DNA of 64,000 nt from Candidatus Cloacimonadales bacterium (GCA_963662655.2 CAXXTU010000002.1:1472001-1536000); one strand, 5' to 3'; positions 2,296 through 50,708 are shown, counted from the first letter of the stretch. The notes: a model not told the origin generated them from the sequence alone. Numbers and translations: made by a program.

Positions 2296-2464
2296 AGTTA
2301 TACCTGTCCGGAAAAAAAACAAATCTCGTCTTCGAGTCAAGTATTTTCGGAGCCGGTATTTTCATGCCTGTGAATCGCATTCGTTTTCCCGGTAAATACG
2401 TTGCCAAATTTCTGAAGCGCCATTAATCTGGATTTGAAAGAATATGCAACTTCGGGAGGAGTCC

Positions 2465-34270: not shown

Positions 34271-35617
34271 GGCACTGTTGCATATTAAGTGGGTGAATGG
34301 GTATTCAGATATCCGCAACATTGCAGAACCTTCAATCTGAAGTATGAGAAGTCCTTGTATCCATACGCTCTCTTTATAATGGTTCGAATGACGTTGTTAA
34401 CCGCTTCTGCCTTGGCATTCGTGATTCTATGCTTGAACCAGTTCAACACAATATGCAATCTCTTCATAATCGTTCTTGCAAGTGCCTTCAGTGGCTCGAA
34501 GACGGTTTTCTGAATAACTCTGCACCACTCTTCAATCATCGGCTTCGCTTCTTCTTGCGTAATATCGTCTTCGAAAATCGATAGTAAATCTTCTTTGAGC
34601 AAATAGGCTTCGTAAAGGGGATGATTTAGCGTCTCCAGTTTCTTGAGTCGGGCTTGATGGTTTTCTTTGTGATTGTGTTTTCTGGTCAAAACCAACCACC
34701 GGTCGTGTTTCTTGCTCTGACGCAACTTGTCAGATTCAAAATCTCTCTGAAGTTCTCGTCGTACTTCTTCCACTTTCCTGTTGACCAGGCGGCTGAAATG
34801 GAAACGATCAAATACGATCATATCGGCACTCCAACACTCGGAAACAGCGCCGATATATGAACCACTGAAATCCATTGTTACGGTATCAATCCAGCGGAGT
34901 CGTCGTTCGTATTTTCGAAACAACTCCTTCGCACTTTCTTTCGATTTGCCCATTGTCAGGTCGATCACACGCCCGTCCTCATGGTTTGTGATAACCGTTG
35001 CATACTTATGCCTTCGCTTATAACCAATCTCGTCAATTGCAATCTGATCGACATTCGGAACTCGTCCTCTATAACCCTTTTCCAACTTGGATAACTCAAT
35101 TTTGTCGATTCGATAAATCGTACTCCGATCCACACCGAATATCCGTGCTACAGAAGCATTGTCTGAACGAAGCGTGAACTGGAGAACCTTATTGCCGAAG
35201 TCTTTAGAGTGTCGATTGAGACCCTCGGCAATATCCTGTTGTTCAGTTTTCACTCCACACTGAGCGCAGTTGATCCGGCGAAGCGTTAGCACAAGTACTA
35301 CGGGACGACAGGATATGGATGCATGAAGAATTTTGCGGACTCGATGATCATAAACTGTTCCCACAATACCGCATGTAGGACAACGTGGCTCATCTTCCTT
35401 TCGAACATGGACTTCAATGCATGGATAAGTTTGATACGTACCTTCGATTATCTGGTCGGCAGAATAACCTTGCAAAGCCAACAACGTTTTACAGACTTGT
35501 TTTCTGAGAGGATCATTCATCTCTATCTCCTTGTTGTGGTGATTAGGAGATTGTACGAGATCGGGTGATTCCTCTCAATCTTTTTTTCGACTTACCCACT
35601 AAGTTTGCAACAGTGCC
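34271..35617 (-). mobile_element. ISL3-family insertion sequence, complete (1347 bp)
   Basis: Terminal IRs GGCACTGTTGCATATTAAGTGGGT and GGCACTGTTGCAAACTTAGTGGGT match at 21/24. Flanked by A8 (34263-34270) and A9 (35618-35626), consistent with an 8-bp AT-rich TSD. Visibly more AT-rich than its neighbours. Confidence 0.93.
34285..35520 (-). CDS. ISL3-family transposase
   Basis: Zn finger (CPTCG...CAQCG), HTH, and DDE motifs 'IAIDE', 'TMDF', 'FDRFH', 'NAKAEAVNN...AYGY'. Confidence 0.95.
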   Translation of the reverse strand: MNDPLRKQVCKTLLALQGYSADQIIEGTYQTYPCIEVHVRKEDEPRCPTCGIVGTVYDHRVRKILHASISCRPVVLVLTLRRINCAQCGVKTEQQDIAEGLNRHSKDFGNKVLQFTLRSDNASVARIFGVDRSTIYRIDKIELSKLEKGYRGRVPNVDQIAIDEIGYKRRHKYATVITNHEDGRVIDLTMGKSKESAKELFRKYERRLRWIDTVTMDFSGSYIGAVSECWSADMIVFDRFHFSRLVNRKVEEVRRELQRDFESDKLRQSKKHDRWLVLTRKHNHKENHQARLKKLETLNHPLYEAYLLKEDLLSIFEDDITQEEAKPMIEEWCRVIQKTVFEPLKALARTIMKRLHIVLNWFKHRITNAKAEAVNNVIRTIIKRAYGYKDFSYFRLKVLQCCGYLNTHSPT

Positions 35618-35651
35618 AAAAAAAAACCGCCACCTCGTTCGAGATGGCGGC
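35618..35651 (-). terminator. Rho-independent terminator of the dsbD-Omp28 operon
   Basis: On the minus strand, the GCCGCCATCTCG-AA-CGAGGTGGCGGT stem is followed by a U-tract (A9 on +). Confidence 0.8.
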
Positions 35652-35674
35652 TACAATGTGCAGTGTAGTTTGAC

Positions 35675-37921
35675 CTATTTGATCAAAGCCATTTTATGAA
35701 CGGCTGTTCCCTTGGAGGATGTAAGTCTTGCGAAATACACGCCGCTGGAAACAGATTTTCCGTTATCGTCCATACCGTTCCATACAACCGCTTCGCTTTC
35801 AACAACATCGTTGTCGATCAGCGTTCGAATCACCTGACCCCTGATATTGTAGATCGCCAGCGTGACCGGTTCGTTGGAAGGAATGCTCATGGCGATGGTT
35901 GTTTCCGGGTTGAACGGATTCGGGTAAACGCTCAGAGAGACGCCCGTTACCTGCGGAGCGGATGGATCGCTCTCGTTATCGAGATATTCGTTACCCATTC
36001 CACCGTACGCGCCCATATCGGTTGTCAGCGTTCCCATAGCAGGCCACAGCGGTAATCCTGAGTTGTCCGGATCCTCGACATCCATGTGCTCGCCTTCAGG
36101 ATCACCGGCATCGATACAGGGTGAATCTTCCGAGAGGTACCACTCGACGTTGAACAAGTTCTCGATGAGACCAACCTCGGTTGAGGCATTGGTGAACATC
36201 GGATCTCCGTCGATGTTTCCGGTTCCGTCGTAACCACCGGAAACACAGTTGTACGTGGCATAGAAATCGCCGAAGAGATCGATCAGCGGTTCGTCTTCGC
36301 CAATGATGATGTTATTCACCAGGTCCATCTCGGATTCGTAGAGGAAGATCGCTGCACCGGTGCTTCCGGTACAAAGATTGTTCGCGATCGTGTTGTTGAC
36401 CACAACCGGATATGAATCTTCGCGAACGCTGATTGCGGCAGCCTGGCTACCCTGATTGTTCACAATAATGTTATTGTAAATCTCGGGAGTCGAATTCACG
36501 ATGCCGAATGCACCTGCGACCGAGCCGCCATCGTTGTTACCGATAAAACACTGTTTCACGGAAACATTGTCGGAATTGACGATGTGAATCGCGCCTGCCT
36601 GCGTTGAGCCGGAGTTGTCGACAAAGCGACACTTCTGGATATCCACGCTTGAGTTGCTGATCAAAATCGCGCTCTCCTCTGCATTGTAAAACTGGCAGTT
36701 GAAGACGATCGACTCGAATGCGTTGGAATCGATGAAGTCGAGACCATTCCATACGTTACGATCCGTTGTCGAGAAAACAATCGGGTCGTCGTCTGAAGCG
36801 TCGGCAACAAGCGTTCCTTTAACGATCATTCCAATGCCGTTCTGGCTCGTGATTGTCGTTCCCGGTTCAATGACCAGCGTCGCGCCGACAGGAACGGTTA
36901 CATCGCCAATCATGTGATAATTGCCGTATTGGGGATCCCAATGACCCGCGACCGAGCCATAGATATTCCCTGTATCCTGAACGTAGATGTAATCCTCGGC
37001 GGTCTTGGTGTCCGTTTCTTCACCGTCGGAAACGGTGAGACTTACCGTGTAGACGCCAGGAGTCGTATAAACCCATGCAGGATTCTCTTCTTCACTGTCA
37101 ATATTGCCATCACCATCGAAATCCCATTCCCAGGAGATGATTCCTCCCGGAGGCATGGAAAGGCTGGTGAACTGGACGTCAAGAGCAGGTGGACCCATCG
37201 TGATATTAGCGGAGAAATTCGCACCGAATTGCGCCATTTCGCTGATCGCAGCCTGATGGATAACCTTGTCGCCATTGAGGGTCTGAATCAGCACAACGCC
37301 GCGAAGATCGTCAACGCTGTCGTAGTCGAAACCACTGTCGAGGGTTGCGGTGAAAGTTCCGGAATCACCGGAAGCGGTAAGCCCGAAATCCTGTGCTTCG
37401 TAACGACGTACCACGCAGAAGTAGTCGTTCGTGTAACGTTGGGTCACGATGAAGATTATTTTGTTGTTGGAAGTTGTGATGTCCGCCGTCAAAGAGACAC
37501 TGGCTTGCAGCAGGAAGTTGAGATCCTCGTCCTGCATGAAAGCCATGGTGATCTCAGCCGGAGCATCGTCATCGATGACCTGATTGTAATCGGAAACGTA
37601 ACGGGGGTAAGTCGTTCCGCCGCCCCCATCTTCGATGTATCCACCGAATTGGGCATGCGGGATACCGCTTACTCCATACATGCTGCCACGCGAACTGTAG
37701 TTCGGGCTCGTGGGGCATGTCGTTTCGTTTGTTCCACCATTCCAGATCAAGGGAACCACGTTCTCGTGGTTCTCGAATAATTGAAGCAGCCCAGACCGAG
37801 CTGCGGGGCAGTAGCTGCACCATGTTTGCGTAAACACTTCGCCGACTACCTGTATCTGTGTAGCCAGAGCAAGCGTTGACGCAAGGAGCAGCATTAAGAA
37901 GACGACTAATCTTCTTGTCAT
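35675..37921 (-). CDS. Secreted Omp28-like thioredoxin-fold (WCSYC) + PKD + beta-helix protein with FlgD-Ig/T9SS-like tail
   Basis: Signal peptide, 'EVFTQTWCSYCP', cis-Pro 'GIPHAQF', PKD 'WEWDFDGDG...YTTPGVYTVSLTV', Asn-rich beta-helix repeats, and 'YPNPFNPETTI...KMALIK'. Confidence 0.85.
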   Translation of the reverse strand: MTRRLVVFLMLLLASTLALATQIQVVGEVFTQTWCSYCPAARSGLLQLFENHENVVPLIWNGGTNETTCPTSPNYSSRGSMYGVSGIPHAQFGGYIEDGGGGTTYPRYVSDYNQVIDDDAPAEITMAFMQDEDLNFLLQASVSLTADITTSNNKIIFIVTQRYTNDYFCVVRRYEAQDFGLTASGDSGTFTATLDSGFDYDSVDDLRGVVLIQTLNGDKVIHQAAISEMAQFGANFSANITMGPPALDVQFTSLSMPPGGIISWEWDFDGDGNIDSEEENPAWVYTTPGVYTVSLTVSDGEETDTKTAEDYIYVQDTGNIYGSVAGHWDPQYGNYHMIGDVTVPVGATLVIEPGTTITSQNGIGMIVKGTLVADASDDDPIVFSTTDRNVWNGLDFIDSNAFESIVFNCQFYNAEESAILISNSSVDIQKCRFVDNSGSTQAGAIHIVNSDNVSVKQCFIGNNDGGSVAGAFGIVNSTPEIYNNIIVNNQGSQAAAISVREDSYPVVVNNTIANNLCTGSTGAAIFLYESEMDLVNNIIIGEDEPLIDLFGDFYATYNCVSGGYDGTGNIDGDPMFTNASTEVGLIENLFNVEWYLSEDSPCIDAGDPEGEHMDVEDPDNSGLPLWPAMGTLTTDMGAYGGMGNEYLDNESDPSAPQVTGVSLSVYPNPFNPETTIAMSIPSNEPVTLAIYNIRGQVIRTLIDNDVVESEAVVWNGMDDNGKSVSSGVYFARLTSSKGTAVHKMALIK
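37786..37819 (-). promoter_or_regulatory. SECIS-like hairpin downstream of the catalytic TGC codon (possible vestigial SECIS)
   Basis: TGC AGC TAC TGC CCC GCAGCTC-GGTCT-GGGCTGC: a 7-bp stem with a GGUCU loop 19 nt after the first CxxC codon. Confidence 0.55.
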
Positions 37922-38014
37922 CAAGTTCCTCCTTACTATGCTGTTTCTTTTTCAAGAAATCATCTCTCTCTATCGTAACGAATAGCTTTTTAAGGATCTG
38001 TCGGAACTGCCGGA

Positions 38015-40258
38015 TTACTTGATAAGAGCCATCTTGGCAGTCACGGTACGGGTGTCCGTCGTCAGCCGCGCGAAGTAAACACCGCTCGAGACCGGTTTCC
38101 CCGCCTCGTCGATGCCCTTCCACACAAGGTTGAGCGATTCGGTTCTTTCGTTCTCCAGGAGCGTGCAAACCTTCTGGCCGCGAATATTGTAAATCGCCAG
38201 CGTCACCGGCTGCTTGCTCTCCTGCGCACTAAGCTTAAGCGCGATGGTCGTCTCCGGATTGAACGGGTTCGGGAACACGCTCAGGGAGATTATGTCCGCA
38301 GAAGGCGCGACCGTCTCGTCGTCCGTATCGATGTATGGAGCTCCATGACTTCCGCCATAAGCGCCCATATCATTGGTGAGAGAGCCCATTGCAGGCCAAA
38401 GTGCGTATCCAGTGTTGTCGGGATCTTCCACATCGTAGTAATCATCCCCTGGATTCCCAGTATCGATGCAGGGCGAGTCCTCTTGCAGGAACCAGCGTCC
38501 GCCGGTACCGTCGTAGTCCACGCCGCTACCGCTGCTGGGATTCGAGAAGAGCGGGTCCGCGTCGATGTTCATGGTTCCGTCGTGGCCTCCGGTGATGTTG
38601 CAGAAATCAACCGTGGGCGTGCTGTTGAGCGCGTAAATGATCGGCTCATCGCCGCGGAGAATACAGTTCATGATCTGCGGATTGGCGTTGAAAGCGAAAA
38701 GCGCGCCACCCGTTGCGCCGGTGATTGTGTTGTTCACCACCGTGTTATTGAAAAATTCCGGCACACTCTGGTTTTTGAACACCACTGCGCCTCCGGACAT
38801 CCCCGTGTTGTTCGCGAAGACATTGTTCGTGATCACCGGCGAGGATGATGAAAGCTGGATCGCACCTGAATTGCCGGTACTGGAGTTGTTGGCAAACAAA
38901 CTCCCGGTAATCGACACATCGGATGCGCTGATCAGATCGATCGCCGCCGGCGTGCTTGTGCTGTGGTTGTCATAGAACACGCAGCCGTCCACTTCGAGGC
39001 TCGAGTCATCGACGACGATCGCGGTATTGGTTGTTCCGGAGAACCGGCAATTGACCAGTTCGTTATCCCGATCGGTATAGCGAACCTTCATTCCTTTCCA
39101 GGTTCCGCCGTCTGCGGCACGGAATACAATCTGATCGCCGTTTCCGCCGTCTGCGACGAGCCGGCCGTTCACTTCAAAGGTCGCGTCGTTAGAAAGGACG
39201 ATCTCCACACCCGGATCGATTGTCAGTACCTGGCCGTCCTCGACGATCACATCGCCTACGATCTCGTAGGGGTTATATGTCGTGAGCCAGCTACCCGCAA
39301 CGGGGCCGGACGTGTTGCTGCCGTCAGTTACGGTAATCAGGCCCTGGGCGTTCGTCGTAGCGCTTTCGCCATTTGCGTGAATGGTGAGCGAGACGTCGTA
39401 GACACCCGGTGTGTCGTATATGTGGAACGTACTTTCGTCTTCGCTGTCGATGACTCCATCACCGTCGAAATCCCATTCCCAGGCAGTGATTTCACCCACG
39501 GGGAACGAAAGGCTCTGGAAGCTTACGGTAAGCTGCGCTGGGCCTTCGGTGATGCTCGCGTCGATAACGGCAAGCATACCGGTGAAAGGAGTCGAGACAG
39601 CCTGATAGACCTGGTGGTTTCCTGTGAAGCTCTGCACGATGACAATCGCGCGGACGCCCTGAAGGTCCCAGGATGCATCGAGTTCGACGGGGTGTTCAAA
39701 GTACCCGGTCTCACCCGTTTCGTTCAGGGTAAAGGTCTCATCCGCATAGTCTACGACAGTACAAAAATACTCGTCTGTAAAGGCGTTCGTAAGAATGTAG
39801 ATGATACGGTTGTTGGTCGTGGTGATGTCCCCGGTCATCTCGACATTCGCCATGATGGCGAGCTGCCCCAGGTCGTTGGTTCCCAGGTCGATGTCGATCG
39901 CGACGGGAGAGTTATCGTCCACGATGGAGTTGTAATGGCTCAAGTAACGGGGATAGGTTGTTCCGCCGCCAAGATCGTTAATGGCCCCCCCGAACTGCGC
40001 TGATGGCAGCGACGAGATTCCATACATCGATTTTCTTGAACCGTTGTTCGGGCTTGGATGTTGTCCATCTCCTTCCCAAATTAGTGGAACGACATGTTCG
40101 TTCTCTTCGAATAATTGAAGCAGCCCAGACCGAGCTGCGGGACAGTACGGGCACCATGTTTCCGTGAACACCTCCGCCAGTACCCCGATCTGTGTCGCTT
40201 GTAGCAGCAACGCCGAAAGAAGCATCAGCAGGAGGAGTAATAATCGATTGGATTTCAC
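38015..40258 (-). CDS. Secreted Omp28-like thioredoxin-fold (WCPYC) + PKD + beta-helix protein with FlgD-Ig/T9SS-like tail (tandem paralog)
   Basis: Same architecture as 35675-37921, with 'EVFTETWCPYCP'. GTG start after GGAGG. Confidence 0.85.
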   Translation of the reverse strand: MKSNRLLLLLLMLLSALLLQATQIGVLAEVFTETWCPYCPAARSGLLQLFEENEHVVPLIWEGDGQHPSPNNGSRKSMYGISSLPSAQFGGAINDLGGGTTYPRYLSHYNSIVDDNSPVAIDIDLGTNDLGQLAIMANVEMTGDITTTNNRIIYILTNAFTDEYFCTVVDYADETFTLNETGETGYFEHPVELDASWDLQGVRAIVIVQSFTGNHQVYQAVSTPFTGMLAVIDASITEGPAQLTVSFQSLSFPVGEITAWEWDFDGDGVIDSEDESTFHIYDTPGVYDVSLTIHANGESATTNAQGLITVTDGSNTSGPVAGSWLTTYNPYEIVGDVIVEDGQVLTIDPGVEIVLSNDATFEVNGRLVADGGNGDQIVFRAADGGTWKGMKVRYTDRDNELVNCRFSGTTNTAIVVDDSSLEVDGCVFYDNHSTSTPAAIDLISASDVSITGSLFANNSSTGNSGAIQLSSSSPVITNNVFANNTGMSGGAVVFKNQSVPEFFNNTVVNNTITGATGGALFAFNANPQIMNCILRGDEPIIYALNSTPTVDFCNITGGHDGTMNIDADPLFSNPSSGSGVDYDGTGGRWFLQEDSPCIDTGNPGDDYYDVEDPDNTGYALWPAMGSLTNDMGAYGGSHGAPYIDTDDETVAPSADIISLSVFPNPFNPETTIALKLSAQESKQPVTLAIYNIRGQKVCTLLENERTESLNLVWKGIDEAGKPVSSGVYFARLTTDTRTVTAKMALIK
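40120..40153 (-). promoter_or_regulatory. SECIS-like hairpin downstream of the catalytic TGC codon (second copy)
   Basis: TGC CCG TAC TGT CCC GCAGCTC-GGTCT-GGGCTGC. The hairpin is identical to that of the paralog. Confidence 0.55.
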
Positions 40259-40310
40259 TCCAGCCTCCTTTTATTTTCGGGTTCTATCAATGATCTATTA
40301 TGGTATTCAG

Positions 40311-41693
40311 TTACTTCAATAGAAGCATCTTCTTCGCGGCAGAGCTCTGCTCGCCTTCCAGACGATAATAATATACACCGCTTGTTACCGGATTGCCATA
40401 ACTGTCCTTGCCATTCCAGGACACAGAGCCTTTACCCTGATTGACGCTCAGGTTGTCGAACGATTTTACCAACTGACCGCGAACGTTGTAAATGGACAGC
40501 TTTGTGTTGCGAACATTGTCCGTCGGGAGCGAGAAATGAATCTGCGTCTCCGGATTGAATGGATTCGGAGTGTTTTGCGCAAGCTGCACGCCGCTGTAAG
40601 GCACGGTATCGTCTCCGGCGGCGGAACCGGTCTCGTAGGTGAAGTTCAACACAATCGCCTCACTATGTGAAGGCTGAATGGTGAAATTGAAATCCGCCGT
40701 ACCGTTGGAGCTAACGTTCGGAATCAGGAAGTCGAACGCGATCTGCTCGCCCTCGCCAAGCGTGAATTCCCAGGCTCCGCCTGTGGAAGGATGACAACCG
40801 CCCTCTCCATCGGCATACGTATGACAGAACATGACCATCCAGCTATCGGGAACGGAGTTGTACTCGAGGGATGCTGAATAGGCATGCTCGGAGCCGTAGT
40901 TCTTCAGGTAGAATTTTTCGCTGGTGAACTCGTAGACCTCGCCGGTGTATCCGGGACCAACCACGTTGAAATCGAACGGAACGCCGACCCGGCAGGTTAC
41001 TTCGTCCATCGGGTAGGTCGAAGCAGACTGAATGATGGAATGATCCGAAGCCTGCACGTATACGACGACCTGAAGGTTCGTGCTCACCCATCCGCTATCG
41101 ATGGTAAAGCCGTCGATGAGCGTCTGCTGAGAGCCCTGACCAGTCATGCTGAAATCCTGTGTCAGCACCTGACGAGTTACGTGATCGATGCCGTCAATAC
41201 CGTCTTCAACAAGGATGAAGCGAACGTATCCATCCATGATCTCGAACTCGTCCGAGAGCATGGTCACGGTGGCAGCTACGTCGCCGCTCGATGCGTCAAA
41301 ACCGTCGATTTGCAGCTCGATGGGGGCTGTGTTGTATTTTCCAAGATCGATGACTCCCGCATAAGCTGAGCCGTTCGCAACATGATCACCGCCACCAAAA
41401 ATCGTGGTAGACCCGTCGAAGATCGCCATTGGGAAGTCGATCACCTGATAGAAATCGATCATGGCCTGGGTGTCGTCGTTCCCCATATCGCCATGATAAT
41501 GTTGAGCAAGCGAGAAATTTGCCGGAGAATATGACTCGTCAATTACTCCAATACCATCGTTCACGTCTTGCGTTTGAGTTGAAGATGCGTCGTTCAGGAC
41601 CTCGATCATCATGATCTGCGGCGTTCCGGTGAACTCGGCAAAAAGGCCGGTTGCAACCAGTAGCGCCAGCAACAATATATTCACACGTTTCAT
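40311..41693 (-). CDS. Secreted Omp28-like protein lacking CxxC, with an Ig-like Cys-pair domain and FlgD-Ig/T9SS-like tail
   Basis: 'MMIEVLND...QHYH...FYQVIDFPMAIFDG...VRFILVED...VVVYVQ' gives an Omp28-like pattern. Also 'WMVMFCHTYADGEGGCHP' and 'TPNPFNPET...KKMLLLK'. Confidence 0.75.
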   Translation of the reverse strand: MKRVNILLLALLVATGLFAEFTGTPQIMMIEVLNDASSTQTQDVNDGIGVIDESYSPANFSLAQHYHGDMGNDDTQAMIDFYQVIDFPMAIFDGSTTIFGGGDHVANGSAYAGVIDLGKYNTAPIELQIDGFDASSGDVAATVTMLSDEFEIMDGYVRFILVEDGIDGIDHVTRQVLTQDFSMTGQGSQQTLIDGFTIDSGWVSTNLQVVVYVQASDHSIIQSASTYPMDEVTCRVGVPFDFNVVGPGYTGEVYEFTSEKFYLKNYGSEHAYSASLEYNSVPDSWMVMFCHTYADGEGGCHPSTGGAWEFTLGEGEQIAFDFLIPNVSSNGTADFNFTIQPSHSEAIVLNFTYETGSAAGDDTVPYSGVQLAQNTPNPFNPETQIHFSLPTDNVRNTKLSIYNVRGQLVKSFDNLSVNQGKGSVSWNGKDSYGNPVTSGVYYYRLEGEQSSAAKKMLLLK

Positions 41694-41755
41694 TTTGTCC
41701 TCCATGTATCTTGTAATTCAATTTATCTCATTTCAAGTCTTTTTATATATCCAAG

Positions 41756-43252
41756 CTAAAATGTCGTCGTCAATTCAAGCAGGACACCCTCGAACGCGGA
41801 TTGCTGACGGCAGATGCCGTTGCGGCAAACCTTCCCCCCCTTCTGCTTTCCGCCGAACAACGTCAGGTTGGTGTCCTCGGTGATGGGAGCGGTGATCTCT
41901 CCGCCGATCCACCAGGAAGTCTTGTCCAGATCACCGGTGTCTTCGTACTCCGTCTCGGCTGTAATGGAGAAGTTCCAATGCTCGTACGCGGCATCCACTT
42001 GAAGCAGCGGCTCGTAGTGCTTCGCTTCCTTGCCGGCGTCCTTCTTGGAGACAATTTCGTATTCGCCGCGAATCATCACCGGTACGCTTGCAAGGGTGAA
42101 ATCAAACGCGAGGGCAGGCGTCAACTCTTTTCCCCACGTCTCGTTAACTTCGTTGAGATACTCGAGATGCTCGTAGTCGGCTGTGAGCACGAAGGATTCG
42201 AAGTCATACTTACCCTGCATGAAGAAGTTCGCCTGACGGTAGTCCTTGTCGGAGCTCCACGCTTCCGCGTAGCTGACAAACAGTTCGCTCGAGTAGTCCG
42301 GCGTGTACCGAACCTCGCCCAGATACCCTTCCTCGTCCTCACCCGGCTTGAGACCGCTCTCGGTGAGCGGTTCGTCGGCGTGATTAAGGGTGGGGATGTC
42401 CTGAAGCGGCTCGATGGAATCGGTGCGATAGTTAAAGTCTTCGTATTTTTTGTACGCGCCCGTGATCGTGATATCGGGTATATAGATCGTCGTGTTTGTA
42501 TAAAGTCCTGTCCCGTCCCTGTCCTCGCCCGGAAGTTCGGTCTCGTCCATCGTGGCGTACTCGCCGTAGAAATCGATCAGCCCGGTGGAGAGCTTCACCC
42601 TTCCGCCGAGTGTAGTAAGGTTCGAGAAGAGATCGTCCTCCTCGTTGGTGGAGGGATCAATTACGGTATAACCCTGGCGCAGTCCCAGCATGGTAAGTCC
42701 CACGCGAAGCTGCTTGATGATGCGCACTTCGAGGTCAGCGCCGGAGACGACGTCGTTCTTCTCTTCGCCGCCACGCTCGACAGGATAAACCGCATACATG
42801 CCCTGTACATCGAATCTGTCTTTCGTGAAGCGCGCTTTCGCACCTTCGAGACGCGTATCGTGATCGAGGTCCTTGTCTTCCCACGAACGGAAGATCATTC
42901 CCGACCCATACGATCCATCCATCGTTCCGGCATGCGCCGTCAACTGGTCGGTTTCATATGTGATGTAACGTTCGTCCCACTCGTAATAGAGGTCTTCCTG
43001 CTCGAGCTCATCGACCATCTCGCCTTCGTAGCTGCTGTACTCGGGGTACCCCGCGTTAAAAGACATTCCGAAGGTGAAGTGGTTGTAGTTCACGCGCATG
43101 GAAAAATCATCTTCAAAATAATGTTTGAGGGAATCGCCCTGCGCCTCGCGGTATCGGTACGCGATCTCGTTGGTTCCCGTGATGGAGAAGGTGTCTTCCG
43201 CGGAAAGCATCGCCGTTGCAAGAAGCGCAATCAATAATATCCAATATTTCAT
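41756..43252 (-). CDS. Outer-membrane beta-barrel with C-terminal CxxxxC loop (DUF6029-like)
   Basis: Signal peptide, amphipathic strands and a terminal Phe. 'YGSGMIFRSWED..LD.D..L.G' and 'GGKVCRNGICR'. Confidence 0.75.
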   Translation of the reverse strand: MKYWILLIALLATAMLSAEDTFSITGTNEIAYRYREAQGDSLKHYFEDDFSMRVNYNHFTFGMSFNAGYPEYSSYEGEMVDELEQEDLYYEWDERYITYETDQLTAHAGTMDGSYGSGMIFRSWEDKDLDHDTRLEGAKARFTKDRFDVQGMYAVYPVERGGEEKNDVVSGADLEVRIIKQLRVGLTMLGLRQGYTVIDPSTNEEDDLFSNLTTLGGRVKLSTGLIDFYGEYATMDETELPGEDRDGTGLYTNTTIYIPDITITGAYKKYEDFNYRTDSIEPLQDIPTLNHADEPLTESGLKPGEDEEGYLGEVRYTPDYSSELFVSYAEAWSSDKDYRQANFFMQGKYDFESFVLTADYEHLEYLNEVNETWGKELTPALAFDFTLASVPVMIRGEYEIVSKKDAGKEAKHYEPLLQVDAAYEHWNFSITAETEYEDTGDLDKTSWWIGGEITAPITEDTNLTLFGGKQKGGKVCRNGICRQQSAFEGVLLELTTTF

Positions 43253-43262
43253 CCCGTCCGTC

Positions 43263-43760
43263 CTATTCGGCTTCTACCGGTTTTTCGCTCAAGGCTTTCA
43301 CGATTTCTTCTTCCAGATGCATCTCATCGCCCTTCTGATATCCCACGTGAGAGAAAACCATCTCCCCGTCCTTGCTTATGATCATCGTGTGAGGAGGATT
43401 CTGTGCATTGAGCGCTTTGTAAACCTTCATGTCGGGATCGAGCAGCGTGAGGAACTGGAATCGGTTCTTCACGAAGCGGATCGCGTCTTCCTTCTTGGAT
43501 GGCTTGTCCACGGAGATGCAAACAACCGTAATCCGATCTTCGTATTTCTTCTGGAGCTTGTCCAACTCGGGCATTTCCTTCTTGCAGTTCTTGCACCATG
43601 TCGCCCAAAAACTGATAACAACCGGCCCCTTCTCCAGCAAACTGGAAAGCGACACCTGATCGCCGTTGATATCCTCGAGTTTGAAATCCTGCACTTTATC
43701 CGCCGCGAGGAGTCCCGCAGCCAAAACCGTCATGATAATCGTAAGAATGATTGTTCGCAT
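43263..43760 (-). CDS. TlpA/ResA-family periplasmic thiol-disulfide oxidoreductase
   Basis: Signal peptide, 'DFKLEDING', 'FWATWCKNCKKEMP', cis-Pro 'NPPHTMII'. Confidence 0.92.
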   Translation of the reverse strand: MRTIILTIIMTVLAAGLLAADKVQDFKLEDINGDQVSLSSLLEKGPVVISFWATWCKNCKKEMPELDKLQKKYEDRITVVCISVDKPSKKEDAIRFVKNRFQFLTLLDPDMKVYKALNAQNPPHTMIISKDGEMVFSHVGYQKGDEMHLEEEIVKALSEKPVEAE

Positions 43761-43774
43761 TGTATTGCTCCTTC

Positions 43775-45190
43775 CTATATACCTTCGATCGGAACTTCGA
43801 TCACGTTGTAAACTTTACAGTCGTTACCATACTGGGTATGCATGGTTTGCAGCCACACATAGAGAACCGTGTCATCCGGTAAATCGCCGGCGTACTCGAA
43901 ATTGAAGCGGTAGTCTTCATCGAAATTGCCGGAAGAGGCTTCCAGGCTTGTATACGCGACGCCGCCCTTCCACAAGACGGCCTGATGATAGTAGTCGCCG
44001 CCGTTGGATTGCGCGGTCTCTTCCACCAGCGCGTAACGGACAATCAAATCCGTCTCGTCCATGTACTCGTCGAGGTCGATATCAAGGTACACCATCATCT
44101 CATTATCAGCGCCGCTCCATTCCATCCTGCCGTCGGAAAGCAATGCCCGGGCGTCCACCGCGAGGTAGTCGTTAAGCGGTATCTCGTATTGCGATTGGCC
44201 CGATATTCCGCCGTTCATGACAAGCTGCCCCTGGAATACGGCCGTCGGGCATTCGATGTTACCGAGATAGTAGTCCAGGAGTTCGTCGTTGTCGTCGAAG
44301 AAACCGTCGTAGCTGTCGCTGATGTGGTACTCGACATAGTAGAACTTGTCGCCATAGATTTCCTTCAGGTCATGGAGAACTTGCTCGGACGTCGGGCAAT
44401 TCGGACACCAGGTTCCGGTGAAGAGCTCCACCAGCACCTTCTGCTTGGAGAGGTCGGGCGCATCCTGACCATTACCGCAGAAAATGTACTCGCCATCGAC
44501 GACGGTGTAGGTGTCGTCCACACGCAGCGTGAAACCGGTCGAGTTTTCCGTGATCTCGTAAACAAACGAGTTATCATAGGCATCGTAATTCAATATCGTA
44601 GTGGTTACACCCATGGATGGAGATATGTCGTCGAAGAGGTTGAAGAGCGAATCGCGGCCTACGCCATTGTTGTAATAGTCTGCGATGAAATACGATGCGA
44701 GCGTTGCGAAATCGCTATTCGTAATGGCATCGGCAAGGTCCGCTACATACTCGGTCTGTACATCGGCGAAAGCTTCCGCGGCCCGATTGCCGACAAACTT
44801 GAAATCGCCGCCGACCTTCTGCACGCAATCCACAAACGTCCACGAGAAGATCATATCCGTAATACCATCGTCACCGCCAAGTATCCACTTGATCTTCGAG
44901 ACATCGCCTTCGGTGAAGCGATCGATCGTCACGTGAAGATTCCACTCCTTATCCCCGAGCATGGTTTCGTACCAGTTAAGCTTATCGGCATAGTTTGCGC
45001 CGTCATTCAGGTAATCCTCGCTGTAGTAAGCCATCAGACGATCGACGTCATCAACCGTTGAAACGGATTGCACGGTGTTGGAAAGCTCGTCGAAAAAATC
45101 CGTCAGATGCTTGTCGAACTCCGAATCGAAGCGATCGCACCCAGAGAGAAGCAAGATAGCGGCTGCAATCAATAATAGAATTCTCTTCAT
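43775..45190 (-). CDS. Lipoprotein with two NTF2-like repeats and a C-terminal Omp28-like thioredoxin domain (WCPNC)
   Basis: Lipobox 'LLSGC', repeated 'Y..DY.N.G' modules, 'VLVELFTGTWCPNCP', 'VEYH', 'CPTAVFQG', 'YALVEE'. Confidence 0.8.
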   Translation of the reverse strand: MKRILLLIAAAILLLSGCDRFDSEFDKHLTDFFDELSNTVQSVSTVDDVDRLMAYYSEDYLNDGANYADKLNWYETMLGDKEWNLHVTIDRFTEGDVSKIKWILGGDDGITDMIFSWTFVDCVQKVGGDFKFVGNRAAEAFADVQTEYVADLADAITNSDFATLASYFIADYYNNGVGRDSLFNLFDDISPSMGVTTTILNYDAYDNSFVYEITENSTGFTLRVDDTYTVVDGEYIFCGNGQDAPDLSKQKVLVELFTGTWCPNCPTSEQVLHDLKEIYGDKFYYVEYHISDSYDGFFDDNDELLDYYLGNIECPTAVFQGQLVMNGGISGQSQYEIPLNDYLAVDARALLSDGRMEWSGADNEMMVYLDIDLDEYMDETDLIVRYALVEETAQSNGGDYYHQAVLWKGGVAYTSLEASSGNFDEDYRFNFEYAGDLPDDTVLYVWLQTMHTQYGNDCKVYNVIEVPIEGI

Positions 45191-45245
45191 ATTTCTCTCC
45201 ATCTCATAATTACTAAAAAAATCTATCCCTGCATGGCATCGAGGA

Positions 45246-46958
45246 TCAGTTCCCGATCTTCTCGAGCTCGTCCTTCACCATGCTTTTGGTAATAATCTCG
45301 GGGAACACCACCGGATCGTCCTGCCCGGGAATGTAGAGCAAATAAAGCGGTACACCGGCGCGATCGAATTTGTGGAGCCACTCGATGATGAGAGGATCCT
45401 TGCGGGTGTTGTCACCCTTCATGCGCTCGACGCCGTATTTCTCGAACTCCTCCTCGATATCCTCGGTGAAGAGCACGGTCTTCTCGTTCGTCTTGCAGGT
45501 CATGCACCACTCCGCGCCGAAATCGACAAACACCGGCTTGCCGTCGTCGATGAAATCCTGGAGTAACTCGGGAGAAAATTTCTGCCAGCCCTCTTCCACC
45601 TGGTGTCCGCCGTCCGTGCTTTCAAAACGTAGCAGGAACATCGCGGAGAATACCACCACGGCGATCGCCGTCAGCAGCGCGATCCACTGTTGCGCCTTGC
45701 TGTGATGCGGTTTGGCAAAGCTGCCGTAAATCCAGGCCGCAAGCCCAAGCGATGCGATGAACCACAGAACCCGCATGAAGTTTCCACCGCCACCGACCAG
45801 CGCGTACACGGTGTTCAGCAGGAAAATCGTGGTTCCCATCAAGAGGAATCCCATGAACTCCTTGAACACGTTCATCCAGTTGCCGGGTTTCGGGATCGCC
45901 TTGATCACCCCGGGCCAGAACGCCAGGAGGATGAACGGGAAGGCCAATCCGAGGCCGATCAGCAGGAAGAAGATGACGATGAGTAGCGGAGGCTGAATGA
46001 ACGCGAATCCCAGCGCAGCGCCCAGGAAAGGAGCCGTACAGGGTGTTGCCAGTAGAACCGCCACGATGCCGCTGAGGAACGATCCCCAATGGCCGGATTT
46101 CCCGGAAGCCTTCGATGCAAGCCCCATCCCGGGAGCGGAAATGATGAACACGTCGAAAAGCGAAAGACCGAACACGAAGATGATCGACGTCAGCACCATC
46201 ACGAAACCGAAGTTCTGGAACTGGAAGCCCCAGCCCACCGATTCGCCCGAGAGCTTGATGATGATGACAACGGCTGCCAGGATCAGGAACGAAACCAGGA
46301 TTCCCGCCGTGTAGGCGAAGGAACCTTTCATGATCTCCCTTTTATGGTGCTGGCTCTGGTTGACCAGGTGAATCGCCTTGATGGAAAGCACCGGAAGTAC
46401 GCATGGCATGATGTTCAGGATCAAACCGCCCACAAACGCCATGAGGAGGAACTTGAAGATGTCTGCCGCGGATGTACCGGCTTTCCGCGTCGGTTCGGAC
46501 TGCTCGTCAGAGCCGGTTACGGTGGCGGTTAGCTTGTAATCGGCTGTAACCTCGAATTCCTCGGGAAACAGGCATTGCCCCATTTCATTGCAGACCTGAA
46601 AACCGGCCGCGATGGAGAGCAGGTAGTCACCAGGCTGAACGCTCGAATCGACTTGCATCGGTCGCTTGAGCGTAATCGTTCCGGTGTACTCCGTTACGCC
46701 CTCCGCGTCCTTGTGCCCTTCGGGATACTCGGTATCGCCGAATGTAACCCCCGGCATTGCCGTTGGTTCGATATATAGATAATCTTCCTGCAATGTCGCG
46801 TGCATTCCTTCGGGGAATGTGTACGTTACGTGAAGATACGCCTTGCCGTCCGTGCCAATTTCCGATGGAACAATTTCAGCGGTGATGGTTGTTTCTTGAG
46901 CCCACAGTGAGGCTGTAATGAGTAGGAATAACAGTGAAATGATTCGCAGCGACTTCAT
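45246..46958 (-). CDS. dsbD: Three-domain thiol:disulfide interchange protein DsbD
   Basis: N-domain 'QVCNEMGQCLFP', TM 'NIMPCVLP' and 'ATPCTAPF', C-terminal Trx 'AEWCMTCK'. Confidence 0.93.
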   Translation of the reverse strand: MKSLRIISLLFLLITASLWAQETTITAEIVPSEIGTDGKAYLHVTYTFPEGMHATLQEDYLYIEPTAMPGVTFGDTEYPEGHKDAEGVTEYTGTITLKRPMQVDSSVQPGDYLLSIAAGFQVCNEMGQCLFPEEFEVTADYKLTATVTGSDEQSEPTRKAGTSAADIFKFLLMAFVGGLILNIMPCVLPVLSIKAIHLVNQSQHHKREIMKGSFAYTAGILVSFLILAAVVIIIKLSGESVGWGFQFQNFGFVMVLTSIIFVFGLSLFDVFIISAPGMGLASKASGKSGHWGSFLSGIVAVLLATPCTAPFLGAALGFAFIQPPLLIVIFFLLIGLGLAFPFILLAFWPGVIKAIPKPGNWMNVFKEFMGFLLMGTTIFLLNTVYALVGGGGNFMRVLWFIASLGLAAWIYGSFAKPHHSKAQQWIALLTAIAVVVFSAMFLLRFESTDGGHQVEEGWQKFSPELLQDFIDDGKPVFVDFGAEWCMTCKTNEKTVLFTEDIEEEFEKYGVERMKGDNTRKDPLIIEWLHKFDRAGVPLYLLYIPGQDDPVVFPEIITKSMVKDELEKIGN

Positions 46959-47272
46959 GCAAAACCTCCGTCGGTCGAATGTATCCGTCGATTTTTATTA
47001 TCCTGCAACTTTCTTGCAAGATAAATCGAACGCAGTGTACAATGAAAAACATTTTCGTCTATTTTGTTCACAGCGTCAATTGTTTTTATTGTCAAATGTA
47101 GATTTACAGCGGTTGCTCCGTCATAACCGGTATGTAATGAATATTTTACATTTCCAAACATTCTTCTTATAATTCCTTGCGTTCTCTTTCGGCAATAATA
47201 TTCAGACAAAAATATCTCTTGCAAAAATCCCTGCGGTTCTGTATACAGGCAAAAATCATTTTAGGAAGGATT

Positions 47273-49357
47273 ATGCAAAAAAGAGTCCAGATGTCCAACT
47301 ATTTCATGGAGACCCAGCATCATGAATGGATTCTAACGAATCGGCTTGGCGGCTATGCTTTGGGAACCGGCAATCTCGTGAACCAAAGAAAATACCACGG
47401 CCTGCTCGTTGCAGGATTCGACAATCTCGAGCGTCGTCATCTTGTGGAGAGTATGGAAGAGAAAATCGAGTGGCGCGGAGAGGAATTCTACCTGGATAGC
47501 AATAACTACAGCAACTGCATCTACCCGGAAGGATTCCTGCACCTGGTCAAATCATGGCTGCGCCCCTACCCCATCTTCCTCTATTCGACCGCGCACCACG
47601 ACGATGCGATCTTGATCCTGAAAGAAATCATGATGGACCGCGATTCGAACACGGTCATGATACGATACACCAATCTGGGGAACCATCAGCTCCACTTTCA
47701 ACTGCGCCCCAAGCTCTCCATGCGGGTTCACCATGACCTGAACGCGCCCGGAACATGGGACAGGGAACAGCTCAACACCATCATCGGCATGCAGGGCGAG
47801 AACTCGTTCACCACGTTCAGACCCGGCAACAAGATGGAGCTCAACGGATGCGCGCTTTCCGGCGATTTCCACTACGAGACCATCATCTACCGCGATGTGT
47901 ATTACCCCTGGGAGGTGATGCTCGGTTACAAGGGCACGGGCGACATGATCGCGCCGGTTCGGATCGATTTCGACCTCAAGGTGGGTGCGCATAACTGCAT
48001 CCTCTTCTGTAGCGAGCCCATCGAAAATCCCGCCGAGACGGTCGAGCACATCGAGAAATACTACGCCGATATCCCCAGGCCGTCCGATTACCCCGTTCGT
48101 GAAGCGGATAAAACCATCCTCGACAATCTCGACTACACCGATTCGGTACTCTTCCCGGACGAGGCGTACCGAAAGCTGCTGGCGATCGCCTACGACGACT
48201 TCATCCTGTCGGGAGACATCATCGCTGGATTCCCCTGGTTCGGAGCCTGGGGAAGGGATACCATGATCTCGCTCGAAGGTCTTTATCACACTCCGGAAGG
48301 CATGGAAAGAGCCTGGGACATCCTGAACCGCTACGGAAAACGAATCCGGCGGGGACTCCTGCCCAACGTCCTGCCCGAGTCGGGCGCGGAAGCGAACTAC
48401 GATTCCGTGGATGCCGCCCTGTGGTATGTGATACGTCTTTACGAGGTCGTCGAAAGAAAATCACGGATTGAGAGTACGAAGAAAGCGCAGAGGATTCTCT
48501 GGGAAACCGCCTTCGACTACGCGGATAAAATCGTGCAGGGATTCCTCAAACACAAATCGCATTATCAGATGCGCCCCGACGGCCTGGTGGAGCTCAAGAA
48601 GAACTTCGCCAACGCGACCTGGATGGACGCCAGAATCGAGGGAATCGAAGTTACGCCGCGGCACGGAGCGCCCATCGAGATCAACGGTTTATGGTACAAC
48701 GCGCTCAAGTGCTATCAAATCATGTACAACGAACTGCAAGCGCTCCTTCCGAAGAAAGAGCAATTCAAGCCCTCCTTCGATATCGACGAGTTGGCAACGC
48801 GCGTTCTCGAGGCATTCGGCCAGTTTTGGACCGGCGATTATCTAGCGGACAGGCTGGAAGGCGACAAGCGCATCGAAGACGTCCGGCCCAACGCTGTCAT
48901 CGCCTGCGGACTCCCCTTCGAGATCGTCGATCAGGAGCGGATGGAAGCCGTGTTCGAGAAAGCTCGCAAGGAGCTTTACACGGAGTACGGGCTCAGGACG
49001 CTTTCGCCGAAGGACTACCGCTTCAAGAAGAAATACATCGGTTCGCAGATCGACCGAGACAAGGCCTACCACCAGGGAACCGTGTGGGCCTGGCCGCTCG
49101 AGTATTACGCCAAGCTCTATGCGCGAATCAACAAAGACAAGCTCTCCCGGGAGGAATTGAACGCCGGCCTCGGCGAGATCATTCACAAATTTCGCAACGG
49201 CTTCAAGCGCGGGCACATCGCCTCGGTGGCCGAGGTGTGGGACGGCAGCAAGCCACATTTCCCCAAGGGATGCCCTGCGCAAGCATGGAGCGTTGCGGCG
49301 ATTTATAACGTAGAAATGATGATCGCAAACAATAACGACGAAAAGGACGCCCGATGA
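47273..49357 (+). CDS. Glycogen debranching enzyme (amylo-alpha-1,6-glucosidase, GH133-like)
   Basis: 'EWILTNRLGGYA', 'RKYHGLL', 'AGFPWFGAWGRDT', 'TWMDA', 'YHQGTVW', 'GCPAQAWS'. Confidence 0.92.
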   Translation: MQKRVQMSNYFMETQHHEWILTNRLGGYALGTGNLVNQRKYHGLLVAGFDNLERRHLVESMEEKIEWRGEEFYLDSNNYSNCIYPEGFLHLVKSWLRPYPIFLYSTAHHDDAILILKEIMMDRDSNTVMIRYTNLGNHQLHFQLRPKLSMRVHHDLNAPGTWDREQLNTIIGMQGENSFTTFRPGNKMELNGCALSGDFHYETIIYRDVYYPWEVMLGYKGTGDMIAPVRIDFDLKVGAHNCILFCSEPIENPAETVEHIEKYYADIPRPSDYPVREADKTILDNLDYTDSVLFPDEAYRKLLAIAYDDFILSGDIIAGFPWFGAWGRDTMISLEGLYHTPEGMERAWDILNRYGKRIRRGLLPNVLPESGAEANYDSVDAALWYVIRLYEVVERKSRIESTKKAQRILWETAFDYADKIVQGFLKHKSHYQMRPDGLVELKKNFANATWMDARIEGIEVTPRHGAPIEINGLWYNALKCYQIMYNELQALLPKKEQFKPSFDIDELATRVLEAFGQFWTGDYLADRLEGDKRIEDVRPNAVIACGLPFEIVDQERMEAVFEKARKELYTEYGLRTLSPKDYRFKKKYIGSQIDRDKAYHQGTVWAWPLEYYAKLYARINKDKLSREELNAGLGEIIHKFRNGFKRGHIASVAEVWDGSKPHFPKGCPAQAWSVAAIYNVEMMIANNNDEKDAR

Positions 49358-50697
49358 GAATCCTGATGTACACCTGGGAATTCCCGCCATTGATCGCCGG
49401 CGGACTTGGAATGGCATGCTACGGCATGGTCAAAGCGCTTCTGAAGCAGGACGTGGCAATTGACATGGTGATTCCCACGCGGGAAGCGGTTTACTTCCCT
49501 CTGCGAAAACCGGAGGACGTCGACTCATTGCCTGTGGTATTCCTGGATAAACACAAACAGACCGATTACGATTCGAGGACCTTCGACGATCCGAACGAAC
49601 GTTTCAAATACATTGGAATCACCGAATCGCCGGAAACCTACAAGCAAGTCGACGAGATCAGCGAGACCATCAAGAAGGCTGTGGATGAGGAAAAAATGGA
49701 AGCCGAAACGGAACCCGAGAAACACGGGTATGACGACATTTGGGACAACATCGCCCACCACCTGATGGGGGCCGACGACATCTTCAAGCGCGTTCAGGAA
49801 TTCACGCTTCGGGCGGAAAGGTTCGCCAAGATTCTCGAATACGACGCCATCCACGCGCACGACTGGCTTTGCTATCCTTCGGGCATGATTGCCCGTAAGA
49901 TATCGGGAAAACCGTTGGTTGCCCACATGCACGCCACCGAGTTCGACCGCGCGGGGGGGCCCGGGAACCCCAACGTTCACAACATTGAGTTCACTGGCAT
50001 GACCTATTCCGATTACGTCATCGCGGTTTCCCAATACACAGCGGAGATGGTTATCTCCCGCTACCGGATCGACACCGGTAAAATCCGCATCGTTCACAAC
50101 GCCTACATCGTCGAGGACGACATCGAGCACTGCGAGAAGCGCCTCTTCAAGGGTACGACAATCCTTTTCTTGGGACGCATCACCCTGCAAAAGGGACCCG
50201 AGTTTTTCCTCGATGTCGCCAAGAGCGTTCTGGAGAAACACCCCGACGCACGTTTCATCATGGCCGGAAGCGGGGACATGGCGCGCAAAATCATTCACCG
50301 CTCCGCGTTCCTCAAGCTGCGCAACCGCTTCCTCTTCACAGGATTCCTCAATCGCAAAGAAGTGGACGAGATTCTCAAGATGTCGGACATCTACATGCTT
50401 CCCTCCATCTCGGAGCCATTCGGAATCGCGCCGCTGGAGGCGATGGCCTACGGCGTTACGGCGATTATTTCCAAGCAGTCGGGCGTCTCGGAGGTTGTCG
50501 AGAACGCCTATAAAATCGATTTCTGGGATGTCCCGAAGATGGTCAAGACCATCAACGACCTGATCGAGCATCCGGCGAAGCGAAAGAAAATGGGTATCGC
50601 CGGGATGAACGAAGTCCATCAGATTCAGTGGGACGACGCCGCGACCAAGATCAAAGACGTCTACCAGGAAGCCATCGACGAATACATGCAGGAATAA
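49354..50697 (+). CDS. GT4 glycosyltransferase (glycogen-synthase-like)
   Basis: 'WEFPP..AGGLG', 'HAHDW', 'HATEFDR', 'EPFGIAPLEA'. Confidence 0.9.
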   Translation: MRILMYTWEFPPLIAGGLGMACYGMVKALLKQDVAIDMVIPTREAVYFPLRKPEDVDSLPVVFLDKHKQTDYDSRTFDDPNERFKYIGITESPETYKQVDEISETIKKAVDEEKMEAETEPEKHGYDDIWDNIAHHLMGADDIFKRVQEFTLRAERFAKILEYDAIHAHDWLCYPSGMIARKISGKPLVAHMHATEFDRAGGPGNPNVHNIEFTGMTYSDYVIAVSQYTAEMVISRYRIDTGKIRIVHNAYIVEDDIEHCEKRLFKGTTILFLGRITLQKGPEFFLDVAKSVLEKHPDARFIMAGSGDMARKIIHRSAFLKLRNRFLFTGFLNRKEVDEILKMSDIYMLPSISEPFGIAPLEAMAYGVTAIISKQSGVSEVVENAYKIDFWDVPKMVKTINDLIEHPAKRKKMGIAGMNEVHQIQWDDAATKIKDVYQEAIDEYMQE

Positions 50698-50708
50698 AGG
50701 ATCCATCT

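Follow-up and report, generated by a model that had tools for sequence, protein, structure and literature searches.

In a 64,000-nt stretch of the genome of a Candidatus Cloacimonadales bacterium (GCA_963662655.2, CAXXTU010000002.1:1472001-1536000; the window), we analysed an operon of seven minus-strand open reading frames (ORFs; 35675-46958), which with a probability of nearly 60% encodes a trans-outer-membrane dithiol/disulfide relay extending the DsbD pathway. In transcription order it comprises dsbD, the gene of an Omp28-like lipoprotein, tlpA, the gene of a DUF6029 outer-membrane barrel and the genes of three proteins with a type IX secretion system (T9SS) sorting tail, with products of 570, 475, 165, 498, 464, 747 and 749 amino acids (aa) and intergenic gaps of 43, 14, 10, 50, 52 and 90 nt, respectively. 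Judged from sequence and structural modelling, the link from DsbD via TlpA to a cysteine hairpin inside the barrel appears well supported, and a redox function is argued for by the predicted TlpA-barrel complex, by fusions of these two proteins, by the exchange of the electron donor and by the fact that neither cytochrome c maturation proteins nor DsbB or VKOR were found in the 21 genomes searched.

The original prediction, made from the DNA alone, described seven co-directional genes with short gaps and a terminator, all of which are present (gaps of 10-90 nt; a 12-pair stem followed by a T run), and every cysteine motif that it quoted was found (three pairs in DsbD, WCPNC, WCKNC, CRNGIC, WCPYC, WCSYC and C294/C304). 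Its arrows ran from DsbD over TlpA and barrel to the lipoprotein; these genes exist, but their order on the DNA is dsbD-lipoprotein-tlpA-barrel and not that of electron flow. Furthermore, the T9SS-like tail that it ascribed to two secreted proteins is carried by both and likewise by the third, the 464-aa protein. The features are as follows.

45246-46958, minus strand: dsbD (Pfam DsbD_TM and Thioredoxin_7 above cut-off; cysteine positions)
43775-45202, minus strand: Omp28-like thioredoxin-fold lipoprotein (NF033782 and NF045500 below cut-off; thioredoxin matches in the PDB)
43263-43760, minus strand: tlpA (Pfam AhpC-TSA and Redoxin above cut-off)
41756-43252, minus strand: DUF6029 barrel (PF19494)
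41810-41827, minus strand: C476-x4-C481 hairpin of the barrel (homologue alignment, predicted complex)
40311-41705, minus strand: 464-aa tailed protein, the Cys-hairpin protein (family scans, T9SS tail)
38015-40258, minus strand: 747-aa tailed protein, WCPYC (family scans, T9SS tail)
35675-37924, minus strand: 749-aa tailed protein, WCSYC (family scans, T9SS tail)
35615-35652, minus strand: intrinsic-terminator-like hairpin and T run at the operon end (12-pair stem 35652-35625; terminator scan)

The DUF6029 barrel and its predicted complex with TlpA

The barrel is a DUF6029 member (PF19494, 100.8 bits versus a cut-off of 27), and its model from a 142-row alignment reached a pLDDT of 94.4 and a pTM of 0.88, versus a pLDDT of only 29 for the single-sequence model. 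When two interrupted strands are merged, 24 strands can be read from the model and every periplasmic turn is 2-5 residues long; the barrel spans residues 22-497, has a longest connector of 34 residues, ends with a C-terminal Phe and lacks a plug domain. The C-x4-C hairpin (CRNGIC) lies in the final extracellular loop, which connects strands 23 and 24. Among 169 retrieved homologues, which are the best-scoring of 1,663 and under-sample distant lineages, C-x4-C occurs close to the C-terminus of all 146 full-length ones (at least 440 aa), 86 of which have no Cys after residue 25 other than these two. The best structural match was the FimD/PapC usher barrel (Z 19.7, root-mean-square deviation 4.5, 372 aligned residues, 10% identity), while a sequence search of the PDB returned no relative and an Atlas search matched DUF6029 clusters only.

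TlpA has a signal peptide, a redoxin fold and a WCKNC motif, with C56, C59 and P123 invariant in 38 of 38 sequences; P123 is presumably the cis-Pro of the fold. The best PDB match of its profile was 2m72 (E 3.9e-32). The complex was predicted in a three-chain job with custom alignments (barrel, CxxC domain of the lipoprotein and TlpA, with TlpA scored), for which the calibration of the score mark, reached by 116 of 157 solved pairs versus 2 of 215 mismatched pairs, holds roughly. TlpA and barrel scored 0.90, 0.90 and 0.88 versus 0.00 for all three controls, with at least 85% of the contacts shared between runs and a partner pLDDT of at least 88; the score of TlpA against the CxxC domain of the lipoprotein was 0.00 when the barrel was replaced. 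The interface holds TlpA residues 55-59 (with the CxxC) and 120-123 and barrel residues 476 and 478-482, including both C476 and C481. In the model, TlpA contacts the periplasmic ends of 21 of the 24 strands and the loops 116-124, 285-293 and 474-482, and since these loops are topologically extracellular, their folding into the lumen is predicted. Of the 28 barrel positions with at least 80% conservation, seven fall among the 63 interface residues, and mean conservation is 0.42 at the interface versus 0.32 elsewhere.

In-frame fusions of TlpA and barrel were found in six genomes of one family and in three database proteins, two of which are copies of the genomic ones, giving seven distinct sequences; such a fusion ties TlpA to the periplasmic N-terminus of the barrel. 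A quick tree needs three changes, at least two of them forced, and one gain plus losses is possible. We know of no complex comparable to the one predicted.

Weak barrel matches in five genomes of one family (f14) were rejected, as they represent another barrel family without C-x4-C and with different neighbours; the genome under study holds a separate 37% homologue of this type. In these five genomes neither an Omp28-like protein nor SprA was matched, but they form one reduced lineage and the SprA control stayed unmatched, and they were not counted as evidence of co-loss. This second barrel family (G000:C2:1368492-1370093 and L156:5777-7231) bears a weak resemblance to DUF6029 in the N-terminal part of the latter and has no Cys hairpin.

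Conservation of the gene cluster

Close homologues of the barrel bear the source names Candidatus Cloacimonetes or Cloacimonadaceae, placing the window in Cloacimonadota. The barrel gene is single-copy in its own genome; 39 of 40 relatives gave a match, as did 139 of 151 Cloacimonadota genomes that are at least 90% complete. The Cloacimonadota loci examined, 39 from a first set of relatives and 13 from a second, are kin and not independent; seven stretches from f14, whose barrel belongs to the other family, were left out of this count. Among these 52 barrel-bearing loci, 51 have TlpA and 51 an Omp28-like domain; 45 encode a tail, 44 the Cys-hairpin domain and 43 the DsbD membrane domain, and the gene order of the window is kept in most, so that the operon is more than a chance arrangement.

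In other phyla, 80 of 89 loci were kept; they were found by a pattern containing both hairpin Cys, and the set favours WOR-3. TlpA accompanies the barrel in 66 of them, an Omp28-like protein in 51 and DsbD in none, with TlpA directly upstream of the barrel in 54 of the 63 loci with enough flanking sequence. For a test independent of the motif, 20 of 82 Bacteroidales-order loci were chosen by whole-length Pfam score: C-x4-C and an Omp28-like protein occurred in all 20, TlpA in 19 and DsbD in 2. Overall, the barrel is encoded in 82 of 151 Bacteroidales-order genomes; no viral loci were found in the search. Co-occurrence had been named beforehand as a point on which the proposal could fall, and the genes do cluster together in several phyla. 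The conservation of the cysteines likewise held, as those of the barrel hairpin, TlpA, the lipoprotein and the Cys-hairpin domain are invariant in the aligned homologues.

The loci also vary in architecture. In the Eisenbacteria-type loci L088, L099 and L116, a 900-aa fusion protein encoded between tlpA and the barrel gene unites an Omp28-like domain with several Ig repeats and with the Cys-hairpin domain, whereas a Zixibacteria locus (L121:6385-9533) has one tlpA followed by two tandem barrel genes. Barrel-adjacent TlpA frames of 271-281 aa in L164-L166, L174 and L175 point to an extra domain. Split frames of the lipoprotein (L034:10897-12316), dsbD (L046:12296-14012) and the barrel (L175:1439-2996) may be assembly errors.

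DsbD and putative alternative electron donors

DsbD combines in one chain an alpha domain with a C-x5-C hairpin (C123/C129), a transmembrane PC...PC pair (C186/C307) and a gamma thioredoxin domain with WCMTC (C485/C488). The DsbD_N match is weak (E 8e-4). The NCBIfam DsbD model gave 160.7 bits, below its cut-off of 330, which marks the protein as a divergent member of the family. The hairpin and the gamma CxxC are present in 33 of 33 full-length relatives, and dsbD is the sole DsbD/CcdA-type match in its own genome.

Nine Cloacimonadota loci lack the DsbD membrane domain. Five of these encode a stand-alone DsbD-alpha domain together with a NapH/NosR-like membrane 4Fe-4S protein and a second TlpA, three are cut by contig ends and one has neither donor; one further Cloacimonadota locus carries both donor types. 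In other phyla, mostly in WOR-3, a NapH-like ferredoxin preceded by a membrane CxxC peptide (45-50 aa, a single helix, CLSC end) directly follows the barrel in 29 of 67 loci with enough flank. A complete genome with the NapH-like protein and the CxxC peptide gave no DsbD/CcdA match; in the same phylum, DsbD/CcdA was matched in 32 of 61 genomes. The presence of two unrelated membrane redox proteins in one slot argues that the module needs transmembrane electron input, and the NapH-like protein with the CxxC peptide (or with the stand-alone DsbD-alpha) is a candidate importer of electrons, which might act as an undescribed substitute for DsbD/CcdA.

NapH/NosR-like membrane 4Fe-4S proteins with either of these partners are found beside TlpA genes at L075:9471-10399, L050:11348-13347 and L161:4456-6394. 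The f14 genomes encode a NapH-like protein with TlpA and a peptide similar to the CxxC peptide, but no DUF6029 barrel; this peptide is a CD1871A-family member, and the WOR-3 peptide tested did not match the CD1871A model. Within the window, 33 kb from the operon, a further NapH-like gene (1513-2340, minus strand) is more distantly related, its product sharing about 31% identity with the proteins of the donor slot.

DsbB, VKOR and CcmF/CcsA (PF01578) were matched in 0 of 21 genomes, with positive controls matching, and DsbD_TM in 19 of 21, which makes the textbook clients of DsbD unlikely here.

Lipoprotein, tailed proteins and selenocysteine

The lipoprotein, whose translation likely starts at Met5, has an LSGC lipobox, an N-terminal domain that is duplicated and, at the C-terminus, an Omp28-like domain of thioredoxin fold (WCPNC); C22, C266 and C269 are invariant in 37 of 37 aligned sequences, and its PDB matches are thioredoxins. 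The Omp28 lipoprotein model NF033782 gave 37.8 bits versus a cut-off of 150, which makes the protein related to but not a member of that family. At the lipidated Cys the consensus N-terminus reads C-D-R-F-D/E, with a net charge of 0 in 12, -1 in 17 and -2 in 8 of the 37 sequences.

All three last proteins carry the TIGR04183 T9SS type A tail (33.1, 37.2 and 47.0 bits versus a cut-off of 23). The 464-aa protein consists of an Omp28-like domain without CxxC, an Ig-like domain with the Cys hairpin (C294/C304) and the tail; its Omp28-like CxxC was lost here and is retained in six relatives' loci (L037, L038, L039, L048, L053 and L058). Both Cys of the Cys-hairpin domain are invariant in 40 of 40 aligned copies, and in several genomes the domain stands alone with a tail. 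It connects to PorA by a weak two-step link via a Bacteroidales protein (hhalign probability 38%, then PDB 6kjk at E 0.0054, with the Cys pair aligned), while a direct PDB search gave no match and an Atlas search nothing above 0.78. Homology of this domain to DsbD-alpha was considered and found unsupported, as only the 11-column hairpin aligns (probability 49%).

The 747-aa protein combines an Omp28-like CxxC domain (WCPYC) with PKD and beta-helix domains and the tail, and the 749-aa protein (WCSYC) is its paralogue (49% identity in the Omp28-like domain). The best NCBIfam match of both is NF045500 (52.4 and 47.3 bits versus a cut-off of 200), to which they are related without being members. 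Orthologues of the 747-aa protein exist in which an in-frame TGA replaces the first Cys; overall, TGA-x-x-C stands in 37 of 180 Omp28-like domains at the position that is CxxC in the rest, and SelA was present in 8 of 8 such genomes tested, once as a fragment. A selenocysteine codon at this position suggests that the first Cys behaves as the catalytic nucleophile. The genome under study also has SelA though its operon copies use Cys, and ARAGORN listed no selenocysteine tRNA. It encodes further tailed Omp28-like proteins (G000:C2:3419597-3420604 and C2:1690186-1692261).

SprA, PorV and PorU are present in this genome, together with 190 tailed ORFs. Among 173 exported proteins, 81 have an even and 87 an odd number of Cys and 5 have none, at 1.16% Cys versus a background of 1.15%; although this is a weak test for long proteins, the lack of an even-Cys bias fits free thiols outside. 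Moreover, 21 C25 cysteine-peptidase domains are encoded, one of them PorU, and secreted cysteine enzymes are plausible clients of the chain.

Proposed mechanism and alternative explanations

In the proposed relay, cytoplasmic thioredoxin would reduce DsbD and electrons would pass from its beta to its gamma and alpha domains, as established for the family; DsbD-alpha would reduce TlpA, as established for relatives, and TlpA is predicted to enter the 24-strand barrel at its periplasmic mouth and to reduce the lumen-folded C-x4-C hairpin. The Omp28-like lipoprotein might then re-oxidise the hairpin from outside, the hairpin swinging out or being reachable from both faces, and via the PorA-like Cys-hairpin protein the electrons could reach the T9SS-exported CxxC/UxxC proteins, which would maintain surface thiols in reduced form; the most plausible targets are the many cysteine enzymes secreted by an anaerobe that has been exposed to oxidants. 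Thioredoxin folds and beta-hairpin dithiols would alternate along this chain as they do within DsbD; this alternation is, as far as is known, a general rule. Of the relay across the outer membrane as first claimed, the DsbD-TlpA-hairpin half is supported by the complex, the fusions and the donor swap, while its outer half is what we infer. The polysulfides or adhesins once suggested as substrates found no support, and surface cysteine enzymes are better grounded (C25 peptidases, Cys counts).

Several points weigh against the relay. The passage from the hairpin over lipoprotein and secreted proteins to a substrate belongs to the inferred half. DsbD neighbours the barrel in none of the 80 loci from other phyla and in 2 of the 20 Bacteroidales-order loci, and Coatesbacteria and Planctomycetales are among the loci with TlpA and barrel but without a nearby Omp28-like gene. 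The multimer check proposed for barrel and TlpA put the TlpA CxxC region and the barrel hairpin into one interface, but no Cys-Cys pair is among the 25 lowest-error pairs, the output giving contacts and not S-S distances. Bacteroidota surface-lipoprotein export signals are given as K-(D/E)2, SDDDD and SDDFE in the accessible part of PMC5080379; C-D-R-F-D/E is no canonical signal of this kind, though none is established for Cloacimonadota. PorA is described as a PorXY ligand, and its Cys are dispensable for that one known function (excerpt of PMC12152298). GldM (TIGR03517) had no match in the genome under study, its control matching nowhere either. Finally, the modelled TlpA filling the lumen would fit a plug or gate equally well.

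Such a plug would be expected of a redox-gated or reductive-release transporter, in which TlpA closes the barrel and, by reducing the hairpin, opens the pore or frees a cargo (a thiol, a selenium or sulfur species, a metal or heme) captured by the surface CxxC/UxxC proteins, so that material moves inward and electrons do not move outward. The 24-strand plug-less barrel is far larger than a dithiol shuttle requires, the predicted contacts of TlpA with 21 of 24 strands are plug-like, and HBP35 binds hemin besides being a thioredoxin (PMC2907840, abstract). We nevertheless consider a transporter unlikely, as no TonB-type energiser or transporter gene is among the seven and the exported partners with a thioredoxin fold would depend on a reductant all the same, for which no other source was found. 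Somewhat less probable still is a periplasm-side quality control that maintains exported proteins with reduced cysteines ahead of export or in its course, the barrel serving as a scaffold or usher-like exit: it would suit the non-canonical export signal of the lipoprotein, a hairpin predicted to be reachable from the periplasm, the usher barrel as best fold match and the 190 tailed proteins, but the tailed partners with catalytic CxxC/UxxC have T9SS signals above cut-off, so active redoxins are addressed outward, and the usher plug is lacking. Nor is the barrel a core T9SS part, a role that we rejected, as SprA was matched in 146 of 151 Bacteroidales-order genomes versus 82 of 151 for the barrel, with two having the barrel without a SprA match.

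The chain might also run in reverse, oxidising or isomerising surface proteins while electrons drain inward. Without a match to DsbB or VKOR in the 21 genomes a substitute oxidative route is conceivable, and the NapH-like protein could accept electrons; given that DsbD moves electrons outward (excerpt of PMC3322552) and that exported proteins show no even-Cys bias (a weak test), we regard this as very improbable. Equally slim are the chances that the disulfide is structural and DUF6029 a polymer-export porin whose folding TlpA merely aids. Polysaccharide secretion is suggested in the accessible part of PMC9603273 from HHpred similarity to Wzi-like barrels, but the porins described there have 18 strands versus 24 here, all seven genes encode redox or tailed proteins, and the fusions, the donor swap and selenocysteine would stay unexplained.

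Altogether, outward electron transfer is, by a modest balance of the evidence, the most economical reading. A wider version is tentative and in our view rather doubtful as a whole: DUF6029 might be an outer-membrane thiol-disulfide transferase that corresponds to DsbD-beta and forms the core of a modular multi-phylum envelope wire, fed by thioredoxin/DsbD or by low-potential electrons via the NapH-like ferredoxin and CxxC peptide, and powering surface Cys/Sec redoxins, whose task would be the activation or repair of secreted cysteine enzymes (for example, gingipain-family proteases) or the reduction of disulfides outside the cell.

Sequence context of the operon

Terminator-like sites over the region showed no excess (18 versus 15.3 ± 3.4 in shuffles), and a promoter scan was not above chance (19 versus 14.0 ± 3.1). 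No RNA data set with the operon was listed, and two DNA sequencing runs from one sample cover it; this is probably the sample from which the sequence came, and the runs are therefore not independent. Directly past the terminator lies an ISL3-family transposase (34285-35520) with about tenfold the read depth of the operon, indicating multiple copies in the sample. On the other side, divergent glycogen-related genes (47177-51938, plus strand) begin with a debranching enzyme according to the family scan, followed by what we take to be a glycosyltransferase and then a probable GH57 amylase.

Comparison with known systems

The DsbD/ScsB/CcdA pathways to TlpA, CcmG or DsbC, such as ScsB-TlpA-PprX of Caulobacter (excerpt of PMC3322552), have the same three-domain importer, a TlpA-like acceptor and alternating folds; their known clients are periplasmic, whereas here binding of TlpA to an outer-membrane barrel is predicted, and in some cases the two form a single fused protein. 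One Bacteroidales-order locus, complete in its gene set, matched Porphyromonas gingivalis Omp28/PG2173 (PDB 2r2c, E 1.9e-16) and PorA (PDB 6kjk, E 0.0054), and no redox link among PG2175 (with a thioredoxin domain), Omp28 and PorA of P. gingivalis was found in print. HBP35 of the same species has thioredoxin activity and a surface location (PMC2907840, abstract); this T9SS-sorted surface CxxC thioredoxin (PDB 5y1a) is a weak match to the exported Omp28-like domains (E ~0.001-0.002), and the module is a candidate for its in vivo reductant, which the abstract leaves unnamed. The Omp28-related selenoprotein NF045500 (GOS_C), given as a hypothetical protein in the accessible part of PMC13188914, has a UxxC thioredoxin-like domain, whereas the operon copies carry Cys. 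In the literature searched, which was mostly open-access, we came across neither the module nor a thiol relay that passes through an outer membrane, and DUF6029 appeared only as a guessed polysaccharide porin (excerpt of PMC9603273).

With the fimbrial usher PapC/FimD, the DUF6029 barrel has the 24 strands in common, but the plug and the periplasmic chaperone-binding domains of the usher are missing. MtrAB, whose structure 6r2q was among the fold matches of the barrel, is a heme wire, whereas thiol exchange, thioredoxin-fold partners and no heme maturation (PF01578 in 0 of 21 genomes) are seen here; in MtrAB, too, a large outer-membrane barrel sheathes a redox protein inserted from the periplasm. 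In the pneumococcal CcdA-Etrx-MsrAB2 system, a membrane importer reportedly feeds surface thioredoxin lipoproteins, with one membrane and no barrel. If the proposed relay is true, it would give a function to DUF6029, Omp28 and the GOS_C selenoprotein family and offer an answer to what reduces HBP35-type surface thioredoxins; residues suited to a test are given by the predicted interface of TlpA and barrel. To our knowledge, known envelope thiol pathways end in the periplasm and known outer-membrane electron routes use heme; a barrel that hands electrons from dithiols to the outside would represent a new class among membrane redox proteins.

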